Of a stretch of DNA of 32,000 bases, positions 4,332-31,840 are shown piece by piece. Source of the stretch: Candidatus Electronema halotolerans (GTDB taxonomy: Bacteria > Desulfobacterota > Desulfobulbia > Desulfobulbales > Desulfobulbaceae). The notes under the pieces were generated by a model. It was given only the letters and a program-made list of their open reading frames with translations, was not told the DNA's origin and did no database searches. Position numbers and translations under genes: made by a program. How positions within the stretch are numbered: the stretch's first letter is position 1; each line of letters opens with the position of its first letter. The DNA lies in NCBI GenBank assembly GCA_942493095.1, contig OW818675.1, positions 1,860,001-1,892,000 of the forward strand. The letters run 5' to 3'.

Positions 4332-4755
4332 GTGCATAACTCGTGATTTTTCTATCAACAAAATTGAGCACCTGAAAATCAAAACGAAGATGAATCACTT
4401 CGCCCTGAAGTCCACGCTCTATCTGAAAGCCGTTCGCTCGGCTTTTAATCTACAGCAACTTCAGGCTGCGTAGCATCAGTTATTCAAATCATCCGGCAAG
4501 GCATCCGCAACGCCGTCACTGTCCGTATCCCTGCTCGTCAACCAAACAGGCCATGTTGTCGCCCTGAAAAACAATGGTCGCAGAGCGGCTGCCAAATTCA
4601 TCAGTGACCTGCGTGCTTGTATGCGTGACCACTGTTGCAGGATTGCCGTCAAAGGTGACTTTGCTCTTGACCGAAGCTTCAGCCAGCATCTGCCGCTGCG
4701 GCGGCAGCAGTTGCGCTTCTTCAGCATATTTCTTACCGCAGTCTGTCGTTTTTCT

Positions 4756-4783
4756 TTGACAAAAACAGGAAGTCGGCTATAGT
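4756..4783 (+). promoter_or_regulatory. sigma70-type promoter candidate (TTGACA-16 nt-TATAGT)
   Basis: Perfect -35 TTGACA at 4756-4761 and -10 TATAGT at 4778-4783 with a 16-nt spacer, about 70 nt upstream of ATG 4855 of the large DUF1566 gene. Confidence 0.45.
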
Positions 4784-4854
4784 GCGATTCTGTTGAGAAA
4801 GGCGGGTGCAATGTCCGCCATTTCTGTTTTTTATCTGCTTTGGATATCCTTGAA

Positions 4855-7227
4855 ATGAAAAAGATTCTCTCTCTTGCCTTGGCTGCGTCGCTCACGTCAA
4901 TTTTCTGCCCGCAGAGCAGCGCGTGGAGCAAGTCATCCTTGCTCTTGCAGATTCCAGCGATTTTGGCGAAGCCGCAAGGCGGAACCACAACGGTCAACGA
5001 CAATGTGACGGTCATTGATGAAAACAGCGCGGCTGAGATTGTCAGCTCGAATACCAGCGCGGAAGGAGACACAGAGCTTCAGTTATCTGGCAATTTGGCA
5101 AGTTCCACGCAGGACGGTTCCATTTTGTATTTGCTTTCCGGCGCGGATGACCGTTTTCCTTTTGGCATTGCTGGCAAAGTGGTCAGCACAACCAGCAATG
5201 CTGATGGAACAAAGACTGTTGTTTTGGGTGAAGCGACCTATGCGGACATCGTCAAAGAGGCATCTTTTAATCTGGACAACATCGTCTTGGATGCAAGCAA
5301 TTTTGTTGGCGTGATTGCTCCGGCTGCTGTTGAGGCGGCATCGCCAATGTCGGCAGCATTGGCAAAAAGCGTATCTGATGGCAGTGTTTATTCGTTCCGT
5401 GATGGTGCGGTTGTGGTCAGGCGGACTGTGGATAAAAGCAGGGCGATGTCTTCCGCATCGGAAAGCGGAACAATAGATGCTGGCACTGTGTCGCTTAATA
5501 TGAAGGTCGATCTTGGAAAAATTATTGACGGAGTTGAAGCAAGTACGATGAAACCGATCAACATTAACACTCCTGTTGGCTTTGTAATAAGCGGCTCCTT
5601 AAAAAATATTAAGATTACTAATGAGAATGAGTTCTCACTTCTTAAAGGCGGATTGAAATATCTCAATTTGCGTTTGGATGGTGATCTTGATTTTGACGTG
5701 AAATTTAACGGCAAGGGAGCGGTGAAGTTCGGCTATTTTTCCCAAGCATGGAATGAAGTAAAAGATGAGTCTTTTAAAATGCTTGGTGTCAAAGCAAAAC
5801 TTAATGGGCTGTCGTCAGATGACAAAATAGGTAAATATCCTCTTGCCGGTTTGGTTTGGTCGGTGCCATGTCCAGAGACTTGCCCTGTGCTGACAGGAAA
5901 AACTCAAACACCATTGCGGCAGGCTAAAGCATTGGGTGTCATTGTTTGGTTGTATCTAACAGCAGAAGGAGAATTCTCACTTGATGGAAATTTTACTCTC
6001 GCGCATCTGACTCCAGCCGGTTTGTCTGTTGGCATCAAGAAAACTTATGGAAATGATTTTAACATAATAAATTCATTAACAAAAAAGAGTGCTTCTGATT
6101 GTCTTATAGAGTCCCCTGAACTTGATGGAAAGGCTGGTTTGCAAGTTAAAGCTGGAATTACAACAGATTTAGATTTTCTTGCAGGTGGTGTACGAATTGC
6201 AAATGCTGGCATGGATGTCGTAGGCCTTTTTAAGGCGCAAGCAACTGGGAAAGCTGGCTATTGCATTAACAATCTTGGCGAATCAGGGAGCTGGAACGGT
6301 GAAATTTGTTTTTCAGGAGGCTTGGGAGCTGGTCTTATAGCTCGCGCTGCGGCAAAGGTTGGCATTGAGATTGATACTACGTGGAAAGATGTGTCTCTTA
6401 ACTTGGAATATTCAAAGCAAACTCCTGCTAAAGAAGATATTGATAAAGAGGGCAGGCACGGGCTGTGGTATTATAAATCTTTCACCTTGTTGTCAACATT
6501 AAATGACACCGGCATAACGTGGAGTGGCAATTATGAGTCCGGGAACAACACGGCCTGCATTGCTTCAAGCACCCCGGACGGCGACAACGTGGTTGCTGCG
6601 CAAGACTGCTCGCATGGACGGGATGCAACCCATAATGACGACAGTGACGGCGATGCCGGATTCAGTTACACCAAATTGAACAGCGATGGCAAACCGTTAG
6701 CTAATCAAAATGCGGATTACGCAACCACGCCTTGGGCCTGTGTGAAGGACAATGTTACCGGTCTGATTTGGGAGGTAAAAACTGATGACGGCGGTCTGCA
6801 TGATAAGGATGATGAATATACTTGGTACAATACTGACCCAAAAACCAATGGCGGCTCAAATGGTTATGATGCTGGAGATAACTGTTACGGATATGACAGC
6901 AGTGATTCGTCCACCTTCTGCAATACCCAAGCCTATGTGAACCGGGTGAATGCGGCAGGCTGGTGTGGGGCCTCTGATTGGCGGATGCCGACACGCAAAG
7001 AGCTGGAGAATCTTGTTCATCATGGCCGCATCGACCCAGCAATAGACATCGACTATTTTCCCAATACGAGGAGTTGGTATTATTGGTCTGGGGTGCCGAA
7101 TGCTTACGATAGGGATGGTCAAGAAAGAGTGTGGACAGGTGATTTCGTCGACGGCGATGGAGGCACCTTTAACCGCTTTGTTGACCTTCCGGTTCGGTTA
7201 GTACACAACGGACAGTGCAATAAATAA
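4855..7227 (+). CDS. large secreted protein with C-terminal DUF1566 (Lcl C-terminal domain)
   Basis: Signal peptide MKKILSLALAASLTSIFCPQSSA from ATG 4855 (track start 4840 is TTG). The C-terminal ~250 aa match the DUF1566 pattern: LNDTGITW...QDCSHGRDA...AGFSYTKL...CVKDNVTGLIWEVKTDDGG...YTWY...CNTQAYVNRVNAAGWCGASDWRMPTRKELENLV...YFPNT..YWS. The middle ~380 aa are not recognisable. Confidence 0.8.
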   Translation: MKKILSLALAASLTSIFCPQSSAWSKSSLLLQIPAILAKPQGGTTTVNDNVTVIDENSAAEIVSSNTSAEGDTELQLSGNLASSTQDGSILYLLSGADDRFPFGIAGKVVSTTSNADGTKTVVLGEATYADIVKEASFNLDNIVLDASNFVGVIAPAAVEAASPMSAALAKSVSDGSVYSFRDGAVVVRRTVDKSRAMSSASESGTIDAGTVSLNMKVDLGKIIDGVEASTMKPININTPVGFVISGSLKNIKITNENEFSLLKGGLKYLNLRLDGDLDFDVKFNGKGAVKFGYFSQAWNEVKDESFKMLGVKAKLNGLSSDDKIGKYPLAGLVWSVPCPETCPVLTGKTQTPLRQAKALGVIVWLYLTAEGEFSLDGNFTLAHLTPAGLSVGIKKTYGNDFNIINSLTKKSASDCLIESPELDGKAGLQVKAGITTDLDFLAGGVRIANAGMDVVGLFKAQATGKAGYCINNLGESGSWNGEICFSGGLGAGLIARAAAKVGIEIDTTWKDVSLNLEYSKQTPAKEDIDKEGRHGLWYYKSFTLLSTLNDTGITWSGNYESGNNTACIASSTPDGDNVVAAQDCSHGRDATHNDDSDGDAGFSYTKLNSDGKPLANQNADYATTPWACVKDNVTGLIWEVKTDDGGLHDKDDEYTWYNTDPKTNGGSNGYDAGDNCYGYDSSDSSTFCNTQAYVNRVNAAGWCGASDWRMPTRKELENLVHHGRIDPAIDIDYFPNTRSWYYWSGVPNAYDRDGQERVWTGDFVDGDGGTFNRFVDLPVRLVHNGQCNK

Positions 7228-7353
7228 TTTTTTGCCTTGATATGAGGAACACGGACAATTTTAACGGCAGCAGGATGTTCATGAGATATTCTGCGAAAAC
7301 CGCAACCATTATAGTAGCGAAAAAATTCTCGCAACTACCGACTTTCATTGACT

Positions 7354-7899
7354 ATGAAAATATATTTCCTGCTGCTCTGCTGCATCTTGCCAACAGCAAG
7401 CGTTCATGCCGAACAAATTTGCAAGCCTGATTCCATTCCCGCCTCAACCCCGGACAGCCAGCTTGTTGACAACGGCGACGGCACTGTCACGGACAGCGCA
7501 ACTGGCTTGATGTGGAAAAAATGTCTTGAAGGCCTTTCCGGGAATAATTGCGGAGACGGTTTTGAAGATTCCTTCACATGGCAGCAAGCTCTCCAAAAGC
7601 CCGATGCCGTCAATAATTCAGGAGGATTTGCAGGTTATAGAGACTGGAGATTGCCCAATATCAATGAACTTGTTTCTCTTGTTGAGGAGCAATGCAGTCT
7701 CCCCGCAATCAATCTGAACCTTTTTCCCAACACGCCAAGTTGGTATGTCTGGTCCGGGTCGCCGCATGCCCACAACTCAATCGCATGGAGCGTTAATTTT
7801 TTGGATGGCACTTCCGAGGGCTACAGCCGTAACATTCGCCACCCCGCAGTTCGGTTGGTGCGTGCGGCGGGAATTGAACAATCACGGAATTGTTTTTGA
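7354..7899 (+). CDS. small secreted DUF1566 domain protein
   Basis: Signal peptide MKIYFLLLCCILPTASVHA from ATG 7354 (track start 7348 is TTG). DUF1566 core: VTDSATGLMWKKC...FTWQQAL...GYRDWRLPNINELVSLV...LFPNTPSWYVWSGSP. Confidence 0.8.
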   Translation: MKIYFLLLCCILPTASVHAEQICKPDSIPASTPDSQLVDNGDGTVTDSATGLMWKKCLEGLSGNNCGDGFEDSFTWQQALQKPDAVNNSGGFAGYRDWRLPNINELVSLVEEQCSLPAINLNLFPNTPSWYVWSGSPHAHNSIAWSVNFLDGTSEGYSRNIRHPAVRLVRAAGIEQSRNCF

Positions 7900-16807: not shown

Positions 16808-17155
16808 TCACGAAAGAATGGTTCTTCTTTCCAAGGATTCGGCTATCATTGCTGTGACTAAGGTGTTCATGCTCACTCCTTCCTGCCGGGCGCAGGCGGC
16901 AAGTTTTGCATACAAACTTTTTGGAAGACGCTGAACCAGACGGCTGCTGCTCTCCGGCTCAGGGATAGGATCATTAAATTCTTCAGCCGTTGCCAGCCAT
17001 GAATGAACTGCGTCCAAGCCATTCATGACAGCTTCTTCCAAGGTTTCTCCATCTGCAATGCAGCCTGGCAAATCTGGGAATAAAATCAAAAAACCACCGC
17101 CTTCCTCTGCTGTCAGCGGACGAACTTCAAAAGGATAGTTGACTTTTCTGCCCAT
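16808..17155 (-). CDS. hicB: HicB-family type II antitoxin
   Basis: YPFEVRPLTAEEGGGFLILFPDLPGCIADGETLEEAVMNGLDAVHSWL is the HicB/UPF0150 N-terminal fold. The C-terminal part is RHH-like (RLPKSLYAKLAACARQEGVSMNTLVTAMIAESL). ATG 17155 lies 4 nt after the hicA stop. Confidence 0.8.
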   Translation of the reverse strand: MGRKVNYPFEVRPLTAEEGGGFLILFPDLPGCIADGETLEEAVMNGLDAVHSWLATAEEFNDPIPEPESSSRLVQRLPKSLYAKLAACARQEGVSMNTLVTAMIAESLERRTILS

Positions 17156-17159
17156 AAAA

Positions 17160-17420
17160 TTATGCCTGATCGCCTTCCCCTTCAATCAGAAAGCGAAGGA
17201 ATTTTTTGATATAAATTGGTTTGATGGGCCGATGCGCTGGAACAGTGATTTTTGCTTCATTTGGATGACGGAAGGTGACGTGACTTGTGCCGGGTTGTCT
17301 CCATGCAATACCAAATCTTTTGGCAAGATATTGTAGCTCATCAATCTGCCAGTCCTGCGGATTATTCTGCATCCTGAGCAGCATCTTTTCAATTTTACTC
17401 ATGATGCTGGAAGATTTCAA
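17160..17420 (-). CDS. hicA: HicA-family mRNA interferase toxin
   Basis: GTSHVTFRHPNEAKITVPAHRPIKPIYIKKFL matches the HicA/YcfA core (G-S-H...vP.H). TTG 17420 is preceded by AGGAG with a 4-nt spacer. The alternative ATG 17402 has no SD. Confidence 0.75.
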   Translation of the reverse strand: MKSSSIMSKIEKMLLRMQNNPQDWQIDELQYLAKRFGIAWRQPGTSHVTFRHPNEAKITVPAHRPIKPIYIKKFLRFLIEGEGDQA

Positions 17421-21185: not shown

Positions 21186-21386
21186 TCATACAAGAACTTT
21201 TCCTTTTGCAAGGATTTCTTTAGTGAATGAGTTGTCTGTCTCGATGAACTCTTCCCATTCACGTTTGGTATAGACAATCAAGTCCATCGGAACTTTAGTT
21301 TTCAAAATATCGAAATATTTTTTCACTAATGAATAATTTTCACTTCGTTCGGCGAAACTCTTTGGCAGTTCGTCCTTATTCAGCAA
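21186..21386 (-). pseudogene. nucleotidyltransferase (Pol-beta/MNT-like) C-terminal remnant
   Basis: ...YFDILKTKVPMDLIVYTKREWEEFIETDNSFTKEILAKGKVLV resembles the C-terminal half of small MNT-type nucleotidyltransferases. The N-terminal GS...D.D catalytic motif is absent. It has only a TTG start and overlaps the upstream ORF by 11 nt in another frame. Confidence 0.4.
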
Positions 21387-21603
21387 GGTCTGATTCTAAT
21401 TCAGAAATTAACTCTGATGTTTCTTTTAGAGAAGCAGCGGCCTGTTCAACCTTTTTATCTAAAGATGTTCTTGACCTTCTAAGTTCATCAAATATATAAT
21501 AAAGTTCAGGCCCAGGCAGCAACGGAATAGAACGTAACAACGCTCTTGTCATCTGTTTAAGCAATTTTCCTGTTATGATCTTTTTGTTTTCAATATCAGA
21601 CAT
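21376..21603 (-). CDS. 75-aa hypothetical helical protein
   Basis: ATG lies 5 nt after the uppS stop, with GGAGAG 13 nt upstream. AT-rich (23 of 60 nt G+C in the one line I counted). The C-terminal half is coiled-coil-like (KKVEQAAASLKETSELISELESDLAE). No family recognised. Confidence 0.45.
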   Translation of the reverse strand: MSDIENKKIITGKLLKQMTRALLRSIPLLPGPELYYIFDELRRSRTSLDKKVEQAAASLKETSELISELESDLAE

Positions 21604-22345: not shown

Positions 22346-22349
<4 letters not shown>

Positions 22350-22903
22350 ACTTCCATGACCTCTTTTTCTTTGCCAGCGGCTATTGAATCGATCTCTTTG
22401 ACAAAATCGTCGGTCAGCTTCTGCACCTCATCCTGCTGCCGGGCCATCTCGTCTTCCGAGATTTCCTTGTCATTCTTCTGCGTTTTCAGCGTGTCATTGG
22501 CCTCGCGGCGGTCGTTGCGGATGCCGACTTTGAACTCTTCCGCAATCTTCTTGACCTGCTTGACCAGCTCCTTGCGCCGCTCCTCAGTGAGCTGGGGAAT
22601 GGGCAGGCGGATGATCTTGCCGTCGCTGGTCGGAGTCAGGCCAATGTCTGAACCGAGAATTGCCTTTTCAATAATCGGCAGCATCTGCGGGTCCCACGGC
22701 TGAATGGAAATCAAGCGGGGTTCCGGGATGGTCAGGGCAGCCACTTGATTGAGGGGCATTTTGGAGCCGTAGGCATCCACCTTGATGCTGTCCAACAGGG
22801 ACAGCGAGGCCCGGCCTGTGCGGATTTTGGTCAGGTCACGCTTGAGAGCCTCAATCCGGGCCGCCATTTTTAATTCAGCTTCATCAACAACAGGATTTGC
22901 CAT
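22346..22903 (-). CDS. frr: ribosome recycling factor
   Basis: Full-length RRF-like sequence (...LKRDLTKIRTGRASLSLLDSIKVDAYGS..PLNQVA...LTEERRKELVKQVKK...). SD GGAGA lies 7 nt upstream of ATG 22903. Confidence 0.95.
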
Positions 22904-23534
22904 GATCTTTCTCCATATACGCTGAGATGGATGAGCGGACTATTGTCAAAAAAATGCTCATAAGTTTTTCAATCTCATTCAAATAGTATTCATCAATGTC
23001 AATACAGGCTTTTTTTTCTGACAATTTTATAAATTTCCAAGCAGTTCCTGTGGTGACGCAGCCATACACATCACGCAGCGAATTTCCTTCCCGTTTATTG
23101 TATAGATCAGCCGCATACATTGTCGCAATGCACTGCCCCAATCCTTGAACGATATTCTCTTTTTTCGCCTCAACTATTGCAACCACAGGAGCTGTGATAT
23201 AAAATTGCTCTGAATTCAGACTGATGATGTAATCACATTGCCCATCCAGTTCCTTTGCTTCATCTACCGTGAATGTTGAGCCTGAAAAAAGACTTATCGT
23301 GTTATTTAATGTCCGGCGCAGCTCCGCCATGATTGGCGCGATAATCCATTCTGATCTGGATTTTTCTGTATTGATGGATAACGCTAAGGGAGCAAATTCG
23401 TCCAAAGTGGTCTTTAAATAATCGCTTATTGACACCGCCTCAATGCTCGAACTTGAAAATAAATGATCAGTTTCAATAACATCAATGCCAAGTTTCTGCT
23501 TCACATCTTTTAAGGTGAATTTGCTGTAGGCCAT
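22884..23534 (-). CDS. PD-(D/E)xK nuclease-fold protein, HsdR-N-terminal-domain-like (paralogue B)
   Basis: Motif series: E62 (SEWIIAPI), D101 (CDYIIS), E122-A-K124 (VAIVEAKKEN), Q134 (GLGQC), then VTTGTAWKFIKL. Collinear with the upstream paralogue. AT-rich. The last 20 nt overlap frr. Confidence 0.75.
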   Translation of the reverse strand: MAYSKFTLKDVKQKLGIDVIETDHLFSSSSIEAVSISDYLKTTLDEFAPLALSINTEKSRSEWIIAPIMAELRRTLNNTISLFSGSTFTVDEAKELDGQCDYIISLNSEQFYITAPVVAIVEAKKENIVQGLGQCIATMYAADLYNKREGNSLRDVYGCVTTGTAWKFIKLSEKKACIDIDEYYLNEIEKLMSIFLTIVRSSISAYMEKDHGKSCC

Positions 23535-23543
23535 TTCAGAAAA

Positions 23544-24152
23544 TCACTGCGTTATGTTTTTCTTAGCCTCAATGACAATCCAATTGAGCACATCAAACAA
23601 CTGCTGCAAATTTTCCGCTGCTGAATAGGAAACAACTTCCATTGTCAGAATATTCCTGCACAGCTTGCCAAACTGCCAAAAGTTGCCTGTGGTCACAATG
23701 CCGAATATTTCCTGCTCCATAGTATTGTTAAATTTCTGAGCAGCAATCATTTCAGCCAGCACCTGCGCCCACCCTTCGTTAAAATTTTCTTTCTTCGCTT
23801 CAGCGATGCAAACAATTGGATTTTTAAAGGTTGTTCCGATATCTGACGCAGGGGCAATGATAAAATCAGGCACACCAACCAAGCCTTCTTCTTCCGCAAC
23901 ATCAAATCTGACATGTGACCAGACAGGCAGCCCGTTGTTCTTGGCAACTATGTTCAATATCGGAAATATGATTGATTCACATATCGCATTCTCACTGACA
24001 TAACTTCGTTTTGTTCGTAGATTATCGCTGATAAGATCAAATAAGACCTTGTCAACGACAAGGCTTGTTTCTTGCACGAAAGACTGCTCAACAAGTTTGA
24101 TTTTAAATTTGGTCGCTACTTGTTCATAAGTAGCAAAACTTCCATAAGGCAT
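23544..24152 (-). CDS. PD-(D/E)xK nuclease-fold protein, HsdR-N-terminal-domain-like (paralogue A)
   Basis: Numbered from MPYGSF (ATG 24152): E59 (CESIIFPI), D96 (PDFIIA), E118-A-K120 (VCIAEAKKEN), Q130 (WAQV), VTTGNFWQFGKL. The track start 24185 is a TTG that overlaps pyrH. The N-terminus MPYGSF..YEQV parallels MAYSKF..KDV of paralogue B. Confidence 0.75.
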   Translation of the reverse strand: MPYGSFATYEQVATKFKIKLVEQSFVQETSLVVDKVLFDLISDNLRTKRSYVSENAICESIIFPILNIVAKNNGLPVWSHVRFDVAEEEGLVGVPDFIIAPASDIGTTFKNPIVCIAEAKKENFNEGWAQVLAEMIAAQKFNNTMEQEIFGIVTTGNFWQFGKLCRNILTMEVVSYSAAENLQQLFDVLNWIVIEAKKNITQ

Positions 24153-24174
24153 ATCTACGCCATCAAAGTGAGAT

Positions 24175-24882
24175 TCACGCCACAATCAGCGTCCCCATCT
24201 GCTCGCCTGCAGCAGCACGGGCAATGTTGCCTTGCTTCTTCATGTTGAAGACCAGCACTGGCAGGTTGTTGTCACGGGCAAGAGAAATGCCGGCAGCATC
24301 CATGACCCGAAGCTGATCCTGCAGCACCTTGGTGTAGGTGAGGCGGTCAAAGCGGACAGCATTTGTATCCTTTTCCGGGTCGCGGTCATACACGCCATCC
24401 ACCCGCGTGGCCTTCATCATCACATCCGCGCTGATCTCCAAGGCGCGCAGCACGCCGCCGGTGTCAGTGGTGAAATAGGGATTGCCCGTGCCTGCGGCAA
24501 AGATCACCGCCCTGCCCTGCTCCAGATGCGCCAGTGCCCCGGCGCGGGTGTATGGCTCGCAGACATTCTGCATGGCAATGGCCGAGAGCACCCGGCACGG
24601 CACTCCGACCCGCTCCAGCCCGTCCTGCATGGCCAAGGCATTAAGCACGGTGGCCAACATGCCCATGTTGTCGGCCACAGCCCGGTTCATGCCGCCCGCA
24701 GCTCCGGCCACGCCCCGGAAAATATTGCCCGCGCCGATCACCAGCCCGATCTGCACCCCTTGCTCATGCACGGTCTTGATTTCCTGAGCGACAAACTGAA
24801 TCATGGCCGGGCTGATGCCGTAAGCCCCATCGCCCATCAGGGCCTCGCCGCTGATCTTGAGAAGGATGCGCTGATATGACAT
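24175..24882 (-). CDS. pyrH: UMP kinase
   Basis: [13 protein letters not shown]...[12 protein letters not shown]...[22 protein letters not shown] are canonical PyrH motifs. Confidence 0.95.
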
Positions 24883-31670: not shown

Positions 31671-31702
31671 GCCTATTTTTTTCCGTCCTGGCAGCCAGTG
31701 TC

Positions 31703-31840
31703 TTGTCAGACAAGTCCCAAGGCAGTTGTCAAGAAACTCCTTTGGGAGTTATCAGAGAACTGACTAAGGAGTTGTGAAGAAACTGCCAAGGGACTTGTCA
31801 GACAACTTGCCGGGCAGTTGCCAAGCAACTCGCTGGTGAG
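31703..31840. repeat. six tandem degenerate 23-bp direct repeats (iteron-like), consensus ~TTGTCAGAnAACTnnCnAAGGnAG
   Basis: Units read head-to-tail:
- ttgtcagacaagtcccaaggcag
- ttgtcaagaaactcctttgggag
- ttatcagagaactgactaaggag
- ttgtgaagaaactgccaagggac
- ttgtcagacaacttgccgggcag
- ttgccaagcaactcgctggtgag
A weaker seventh unit lies at 31841-31863. Units 1 and 5 contain the palindrome CTTGTC-A-GACAAG/C. Confidence 0.8.

Follow-up and report, generated by a model that had tools for sequence, protein, structure and literature searches.

Stand-alone proteins of the HsdR N-terminal type (HSDR_N, PF04313; HSDR_N_2, PF13588; Mrr-like) form the described family closest to two adjacent genes, here called A and B, that lie between pyrH and frr in the cable bacterium Candidatus Electronema halotolerans. 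The whole stretch of DNA that we analysed, 32,000 nucleotides (nt) of contig OW818675.1, is called the window below. Its minus strand carries rpsB, tsf, pyrH, A, B, frr, uppS, cdsA and dxr, in that order. An earlier note on this stretch had described A and B as two co-oriented open reading frames (ORFs) of 202 and 216 amino acids (aa), and this was borne out. A occupies positions 23544-24152 and B positions 22884-23534, both on the minus strand, and both are predicted to be stand-alone PD-(D/E)xK endonucleases, A from a rarer subfamily and B from a large one. Like the HsdR-N proteins, A and B are single-domain proteins of about 200 aa with a collinear series of a helix E, a D, an ExK, a Q and a T(T/N)G..(W/F).F strand, and both kinds of gene stand side by side in one operon on a Planktothrix plasmid. 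Unlike the HsdR-N proteins, the A/B family is invisible to the Pfam HSDR_N models, and its N-terminal 55 residues (M-x-Y-S/G-x-F...) form a conserved, family-specific extension. In contrast to type I HsdR, neither A nor B is fused to, or lies beside, a helicase/ATPase or HsdM/HsdS.

Two further groups of small nucleases invite comparison. A 'PD-DExK' cluster has been listed as a type III CRISPR accessory, with Marme_0670 as the example (Shah et al., PMC6546367); the function of Marme_0670 is unknown (PMC5576922). Both A (E 8.3e-48, positions 2-145 of 146) and B (E 9e-51, positions 2-141) gave a full-length match to the PADLOC PD_DExK profile (PDLC01472) and, like that accessory, are predicted nucleases; the link between PDLC01472 and Marme_0670 is a shared name only. 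Unlike a CRISPR accessory, A and B lie in a window without a CRISPR array and with no cas gene noticed in its ORF lists (cas models were not scanned), and each cas family was matched by merely 1-2 of the 144 immediate neighbours of family members. Uma2 genes (DUF820, PF05685) resemble A and B as small, solitary, partnerless PD-(D/E)xK genes of unknown function, with similar hosts in these data (cyanobacteria and a cable-bacterium-related contig). Uma2 genes made up 6 of the 144 immediate neighbours, one of them directly adjacent on a plasmid. In contrast to these similarities, we detected no sequence relationship between A or B and Uma2 (no Pfam Uma2 match).

Our analysis suggests, with moderate confidence, that A and B are separately acquired and separately functioning members of a large, uncharacterised family of stand-alone PD-(D/E)xK endonucleases of about 200 aa. 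They are not a new system. We compared the window with a sister genome (L176) using blastn and observed 91-93% identity over tsf, pyrH and A, ending 2 nt beyond the stop codon of A (23542). Homology restarted 12 nt ahead of the frr ATG (window position 22915). Exactly in the place of B, L176 carries a 306-aa Excalibur-domain gene that is unrelated to B. From this break and restart of homology it follows that B and the Excalibur gene are alternative cassettes of one slot. A in L176 is intact and 97.5% identical to A of the window; a 109-aa gene call that made it look like a pseudogene was a gene-caller artefact, and tblastn recovered an intact 200-residue frame. The synonymous divergence (dS) between the window and L176 was 0.28 for A, 0.23 for pyrH and 0.28 for frr. 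A has therefore descended vertically together with its flanks, and the exchange affected the second slot. These data contradict the proposal of the earlier note that A and B form a two-gene module or heteromeric pair.

Relatives of A and B are mostly solitary: a lone family gene was seen in about 90% of 90+ loci, and the B-type relatives by themselves gave about 90% of 84 loci. Beyond the window, the A+B arrangement was found only on contig L165, from a near-identical strain. The A-type relatives (60-79% identity) had no B-type neighbour: they were solitary in L001, L003/L004, L171, L172 and L173, and in L002 A was accompanied by a methyltransferase. B-type relatives at 75-80% identity were solitary in L005, L166 and L167/168. 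Across our census of homologue neighbourhoods, family genes were single copy in 76 of 84 loci, so the homologues are not always paired. The co-occurrence and adjacency across genomes that would mark two subunits of a heteromeric enzyme are thus missing, both in these single-copy loci and in L176, where A stands without B. Tandem heterotypic pairs did recur (L025, L067, L080, L039 and L077). These few pairs join subfamilies inconsistently, and fragments occur among the partners (L077, 3278-3601; L039, 5580-5975; L006, 1976-2266). At the ribD/ribE junction of Competibacteraceae (around 5350-6640) we observed type 1 alone (L023), type 2 alone (L024) and both in tandem (L025), a pattern that parallels the pyrH-frr slot of the window.

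We also compared the island with known multi-gene systems. Type I restriction-modification (R-M) does not fit, as A and B are single-domain proteins and no helicase, hsdM or hsdS gene was found in the island or recurring among the 144 neighbours. Type II R-M does not fit either: the island holds no DNA methyltransferase, and the methyltransferase beside A in L002 is a generic class I S-adenosylmethionine (SAM) methyltransferase (Methyltransf_11) that matched no DNA-methyltransferase model. The ORF list of the island contains A and B only, in agreement with the earlier reading that no methyltransferase, ATPase or specificity gene is present. Toxin-antitoxin cassettes (HicAB, DUF4258/MqsA-like) resemble A and B in their surroundings. 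They occupy the same pyrH/frr slot in L085 and L177 as well as other operon junctions of the window, and they are AT-rich, tightly packed and operon-riding. Unlike toxin and antitoxin, A and B are paralogues that both keep intact catalytic sites and are each found alone elsewhere, and the island neither contains nor has space for an antitoxin-like partner.

To survey the junction, metagenome contigs were scanned with the window Frr, which gave 80 related loci, 73 of them also with pyrH. The pyrH-frr gap was 1-198 nt (median near 40), i.e. empty, in 72 of the 73 Desulfobulbales-type loci. In the Electronema clade the slot was occupied in all six versions, with different cargo in each. The window and L165 carry A and B; L176 carries A and the Excalibur-domain gene; L002 (E. 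sp. PJ) carries a class I SAM methyltransferase and A. The sole cargo of L175 (E. sp. JM) is a 269-aa HNH endonuclease (PF01844, HNH_5; 4735-5544), and therefore a second, unrelated nuclease class uses the pyrH/frr site. L085 carries HicB/HicA, a DUF4258/MqsA-like pair and DUF2511, and L177 a HicB-like gene and a 105-aa ORF. We observed that the junction sequences are conserved to the pyrH stop codon, diverge right after it and reconverge at the frr Shine-Dalgarno (SD) sequence; homology within the Electronema clade ends at or within about 13 nt of the pyrH stop. The cargo slot is an insertion hotspot specific to this lineage; its limits coincide almost exactly with the pyrH stop codon and the frr SD, and the exchangeable unit is essentially one ORF.

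The composition of the cargo differs from that of its surroundings. The G+C content was 40.9% for A and 39.6% for B, compared to 61.6% for pyrH, 54.7% for frr and 60.9% for uppS, which places both genes 15-20 points under their flanks and agrees with the AT-richness first counted by hand on single lines of sequence. The empty junction in relatives and the AT-richness together support horizontal acquisition of A and B, as had been suggested. The window ORF list showed no transposase or integrase gene in the pyrH-frr island, and a search for flanking direct or inverted repeats as a transposon signature around the island gave merely short chance-level matches.

The packing of the island is as extreme as the earlier note had described. 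The upstream boundary of the slot is pyrH (UMP kinase; 24175-24882, minus strand), and 22 nt without a clear SD (24153-24174) separate its stop codon from the start of A. We preferred the ATG start of A over a TTG at 24185 because Met-1 is invariant among the homologues. A and B are separated by 9 nt (TTTTCTGAA; 23535-23543, minus strand) with no SD, and this spacer forms the left edge of the B cassette. The SD-less junction implies translational coupling of B to A. Downstream, B overlaps frr (ribosome recycling factor; 22346-22903, minus strand), the other boundary of the slot, by 20 nt, and B also contains the SD of frr (GGAG, 22911-22914). In five related loci that lack B, homology to the window resumes at 22904-22929. 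B residue 207 onward is therefore frr leader and 5' coding sequence: the C-terminal tail MEKDHGKSCC and the stop codon (22884-22916, minus strand) are encoded by the frr leader and the first frr codons, as had been read from the sequence. At other loci, the homologues of B stop near residue 205-208. B has lost the last codons and the stop codon of its own.

A scan for promoters and terminators yielded weak, AT-driven matches only, and on the minus strand the pyrH-frr interval had no convincing one; an Rfam scan of the whole window gave zero matches. Because no convincing internal promoter or terminator was found, expression of A and B must ride on the operon, and the packing leaves no room for such signals, in line with the coupling of transcription to the operon that had been predicted. 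In the deposited protein records, located by exact look-up, A is CAK8718831.1, which NCBI names type I restriction enzyme HsdR N-terminal domain-containing, and B is CAK8718826.1, "Restriction endonuclease domain-containing protein".

We assessed the relationship of A and B to each other and to known nucleases. A and B share 31% identity over about 200 residues, i.e. their whole length (E=9e-19), which is far beyond chance and puts a value on the low identity previously judged by eye. Both carry the same motif series: E59, D96, E118-x-K120, Q130 and VTTGxxWxF in A, and E62, D101, E122-x-K124, Q134 and VTTGxxWxF in B. On the minus strand the catalytic codons of A are at 23976-23978 (E59), 23865-23867 (D96), 23799-23801 (E118) and 23793-23795 (K120); those of B are at 23349-23351 (E62), 23232-23234 (D101), 23169-23171 (E122) and 23163-23165 (K124). 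In alignments of 66-77 sequences the motif series was conserved, and the catalytic D/ExK residues were invariant or at least 90% conserved in both subfamilies. A few family members have substitutions at catalytic positions (P0004, E to A in ExK; P0113, K to N; P0181, D to H). Together with the truncated tandem partners, these substitutions suggest occasional decay of family copies.

Direct domain searches were silent. Pfam and NCBIfam scans of A and B gave no match at E<=1, and the Pfam HSDR_N models were unmatched by A, B and 120+120 homologues even at E<=1. Sub-threshold Pfam matches to PDDEXK_12 were obtained for two distant family members (E 5e-4 and 3e-3). Profile searches of PDB sequences returned chance matches only (E>0.3), and a PHROGs search with A and B returned nothing meaningful. 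We then compared profiles. A combined-family profile aligned to a Planktothrix HSDR_N protein in hhalign with a probability of 95.7% (E 9.7e-9, 142 columns) and with all motifs in register. This reference protein itself passes Pfam HSDR_N (E 2.6e-7), and therefore the assignment to the HsdR-N/Mrr-like branch of the PD-(D/E)xK fold, which had been proposed from the motifs, probably holds. At the level of sequence profiles, the family appears as a divergent, remote relative of the HsdR-N/Mrr-like nuclease domain, beyond the reach of the Pfam model.

Structure models agreed with the PD-(D/E)xK fold. AlphaFold2 (AF2) monomer models of A and B, built on 66-67-sequence alignments, had predicted local distance difference test scores of 91.8 and 92.5 and a predicted template modelling (TM) score of 0.90. 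The order of elements is the canonical alpha-beta-beta-beta-alpha-beta, with a helix carrying the E, three strands, a helix carrying the Q and further strands; the D is on the second strand and the ExK on the third. For both models, all Foldseek matches to the PDB at a probability of at least 0.95 were PD-(D/E)xK proteins, at modest E-values (6e-5 to 1e-2). They comprised the DrdV nuclease domain, lambda exonuclease, Cas4-like proteins, the R2 endonuclease (RLE) and two mitoribosomal chains. The mitoribosomal chains, '5' and 's' of entries such as 7l08 and 6zm5, were the top matches of both models; we take them to be mL37 and mS30/mL65. They are like A and B in having a restriction-endonuclease-like fold (query-normalised TM 0.45-0.58, E 6e-5 to 1e-3). 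Unlike A and B they are eukaryotic ribosomal proteins, with 8-14% identity, and the resemblance is at fold level with no functional implication. The models, the Foldseek matches and the PADLOC profile thus uphold the restriction-endonuclease fold.

We next placed A and B in their wider family. A profile search of 1.84 billion representatives returned 3,527 clusters at 50% identity with E<=1e-3, and 1,842 at E<=1e-10. The best 150 matches were mostly about 200 aa long and aligned from residue 1, and no fused Pfam domains were found in ten longer members. The A subfamily is the rarer (143 clusters at 90% identity), compared to the large B subfamily (>4,200 clusters at 90% identity). Named hosts include cable bacteria, Beggiatoa, Thioploca, Thiomargarita, Achromatium, Competibacteraceae, many filamentous cyanobacteria, Chloroflexi and Poribacteria, among others. 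Assemblies carry several copies. A family copy was found in 18 plasmid records, all cyanobacterial. We found no relatives in phages or viruses, whether among the folds of the BFVD library, in the phage GenBank collection or in two scans of viral contigs.

Family genes share genomic habits with A and B. Their G+C was under that of the flanks in 83 of 85 loci (median -6.7 points), the gaps to neighbours had medians of 70 nt upstream and 56 nt downstream, and neighbours were co-oriented in 70-76%. Copies often lie within housekeeping operons, such as ribD/ribE, lpdA/DUF188, upstream of ispDF, after rlmE and before ilvD. The ratio of nonsynonymous to synonymous divergence (dN/dS) was 0.06 for A of the window against L176, 0.09 for A against L002 and 0.08 for a B-type pair; A and B are under strong purifying selection. 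No recurrent partner gene emerged when 895 neighbouring ORFs were clustered and the 144 immediate neighbours were searched against Pfam and PADLOC. Among these 144, no defence family was matched by more than four (Cas3d, 2; Cas3, 2; Cas6d, 1; MTase_II, 1), so the neighbours are rarely defence genes.

Two apparent recurrences of neighbouring genes were rejected. A recurrence of pyrH/frr near Nostocales members, considered as site specificity, came from one syntenic lineage in which the gene is 1.5-4.5 kb from frr, and two Nostocales "pyrH" matches near family members are actually proB-like kinases. The recurrence of glyA as a neighbour is explained by the Competibacteraceae glyA-nrdR-ribD-ribE operon and a separate synteny in Poribacteria. 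Between DUF1156 and DUF499 genes of the Planktothrix agardhii plasmid NZ_LR882956.1, three different solitary PD-(D/E)xK genes stand in tandem (L178, 2778-4603), spaced by 7 and -11 nt; they encode an HSDR_N protein, a Uma2 protein and a family member. Four further Planktothrix plasmid matches list a Uma2 gene under the match.

If A and B are independent members of this family, each protein would be a self-sufficient, metal-dependent DNA endonuclease, probably a homo-oligomer, acting outside any multi-subunit system. A and B would be transcribed by read-through from the rpsB-tsf-pyrH operon; B would be translated through coupling to A, and frr from the SD embedded in the tail of B. Cassettes may arrive, and replace one another, through recombination in the conserved genes on either side. 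A and B may be kept as selfish or defence-like nucleases whose targets are DNA that is not presented by the host, be it foreign, modified or structure-specific.

Several points weigh against this interpretation. The translational coupling that is implied by the 9-nt A-B junction with no SD is typical of co-functioning genes. Tandem family pairs, at about 6 of 84 loci, are far commoner than random placement predicts, and their excess could reflect optional cooperation and not hotspot accumulation. For every family member, DNA cleavage, substrate and oligomeric state are predictions. The scarcity of defence genes among the immediate neighbours and the absence of the family from phage and viral collections do not favour a defence role; what chiefly prompts the defence label is the name of a profile, together with the co-location of toxin-antitoxin and HNH genes.

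As to what the nucleases do, they could be solitary defence nucleases, either Type IV-like (modification-dependent) or self-sparing, or accessories that CRISPR adaptation modules can recruit. We consider this possible, at odds well short of even. Many diverged paralogues per genome would supply a repertoire of specificities, consistent with the several copies per assembly. The strong match to the PADLOC CRISPR-associated PD_DExK profile points the same way, as does the type III accessory cluster exemplified by Marme_0670, with the reservation on shared names given above. The catalytic residues are conserved and under selection although a cognate DNA methyltransferase is missing. Family genes co-locate with toxin-antitoxin genes and other solitary nucleases, and on the Planktothrix plasmid a member is inserted inside an Hma-like DUF1156/DUF499 operon. 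However, no defence family exceeded four of the 144 neighbours, cas families reached one or two, and most copies lie in housekeeping operons rather than in defence islands. Of the possible functions, we tentatively favour solitary defence by a Type IV-like or otherwise self-sparing nuclease.

Free-standing homing endonuclease genes offer a second comparison. Such genes are known from phage T4 (seg/mob), and I-Ssp6803I is an example with a PD-(D/E)xK fold. Acting in this way, A and B would be selfish genes that cut the unoccupied or alternative allele and are copied in by recombinational repair, which would explain why single ORFs are wedged so precisely into the junctions of conserved operons, above all in polyploid filamentous bacteria. 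Much of the locus looks the part: nuclease ORFs are wedged precisely between conserved genes without repeats or a recombinase gene, they are AT-rich, and B and the Excalibur gene of L176 form a one-site presence/absence polymorphism between identical boundaries. An HNH nuclease uses the same slot in Electronema sp. JM, and degraded copies adjoin intact ones elsewhere. The spread across phyla is patchy, with 72% identity between a Desulfobulbaceae and an Ectothiorhodospiraceae member; the hosts are cyanobacteria, Beggiatoa, Thiomargarita, Achromatium and cable bacteria, and copies occur on cyanobacterial plasmids.

In contrast to homing genes, relatives at 60-79% identity occupy different sites in different hosts with no conserved target, B-type relatives likewise stand at unrelated loci, and there is no intron, intein or phage context and no phage copy. 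Selection is strong in what appears to be vertical descent (dN/dS 0.06, with dS equal to that of the flanks). An empty allele was seen in none of the six Electronema-clade versions, and cargo other than nucleases is found in the slot as well (toxin-antitoxin pairs, a methyltransferase, and Excalibur and DUF2511 genes). Because sites differ among hosts, non-nuclease cargo is accepted and selection is strong, homing is less likely than solitary defence, and we consider it unlikely. We likewise think it improbable that the nucleases of about 200 aa make up a new and very large family of homing (gene-drive-like) PD-(D/E)xK endonucleases that are chromosomal and intron-less. If they were, bare ORF-sized cassettes would copy themselves into the junctions of conserved operons and thrive in polyploid filamentous and giant bacteria, where sister copies of the chromosome would be converted by being cut. 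In Electronema, the pyrH/frr slot would then be a battleground of PD-(D/E)xK, HNH and toxin-antitoxin elements.

An obligate heteromer, in which A and B form a hetero-oligomer that works only together as a defence or addiction unit, seems very unlikely. The tandem, co-oriented arrangement, the 9-nt spacer, the divergence of the paralogues (31% identity) and the recurrence of tandem heterotypic pairs in five other loci are consistent with it. So are the best structural matches, as the two mitoribosomal proteins arise for both models and form a heterodimer with each other. However, the pairing in L176 of a near-identical A with an unrelated gene in the slot of B largely refutes it. The remaining A-type relatives are all solitary, as are nearly all of the B-type ones, tandem partners elsewhere are of inconsistent subfamilies or fragments, and the Competibacteraceae ribD/ribE slot holds type 1, type 2 or both. 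We give almost no credence to a vertically inherited, host-adapted housekeeping fixture of the pyrH-frr operon, which would suit the dS of A against L176 and a dN/dS as low as that of the housekeeping neighbours, at least for recent descent, and which is opposed by the junction empty in 72 of 73 relatives, the six differing cargos, the low G+C and closest relatives at unrelated loci and in other phyla; as a general statement it is excluded, and short-term vertical inheritance of A holds.

The same gene string carries other small insertions. A second AT-rich cargo slot lies at the uppS/cdsA junction (21186-21603, minus strand; G+C about 36-43%). In the window it holds two small ORFs (75 and 66 aa), neither matching Pfam; by eye, the 66-aa ORF resembles a nucleotidyltransferase C-terminal remnant. 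The cargo of this slot in sister genomes is NTP_transf_2 and a 168-aa ORF (L002), a methyltransferase (L175), rpiB and an MBL-fold protein (L176) and a 153-aa ORF (L177). A third insertion, a HicA toxin (86 aa) with a HicB-like antitoxin (125 aa), lies in an AT-rich stretch at 16808-17420 (minus strand), wedged between an rseP-like gene and a 580-aa gene downstream of dxr. Elsewhere in the window, a plus-strand ORF of 795 aa (4840-7227) has an AT-rich middle (G+C about 40% at 5501-6500) and is followed by a 183-aa ORF (7348-7899, plus strand) that looks by eye like the C-terminal region of the 795-aa ORF. An imperfect tandem repeat at 31702-31831 (46-nt unit, 2.8 copies, 69% matches) is not a CRISPR-like array.

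Returning to A and B as independent cassettes, these results bear on annotation, on experiments and on the family itself. For genome annotation, they speak against applying the word "system" to tandem paralogues of this kind. Experiments are redirected to the single proteins by the independence of the two cassettes in their hypervariable slot. Both genes belong to a large, uncharacterised family that lacks a Pfam model and is found in cyanobacteria, giant sulfur bacteria, cable bacteria, Chloroflexi and Poribacteria. In one genus, one operon junction has taken up at least six alternative cargos, exchanged with the precision of an ORF. The pyrH-frr slot of Electronema may thus be usable as a natural system for how small selfish or defence genes colonise essential operons.

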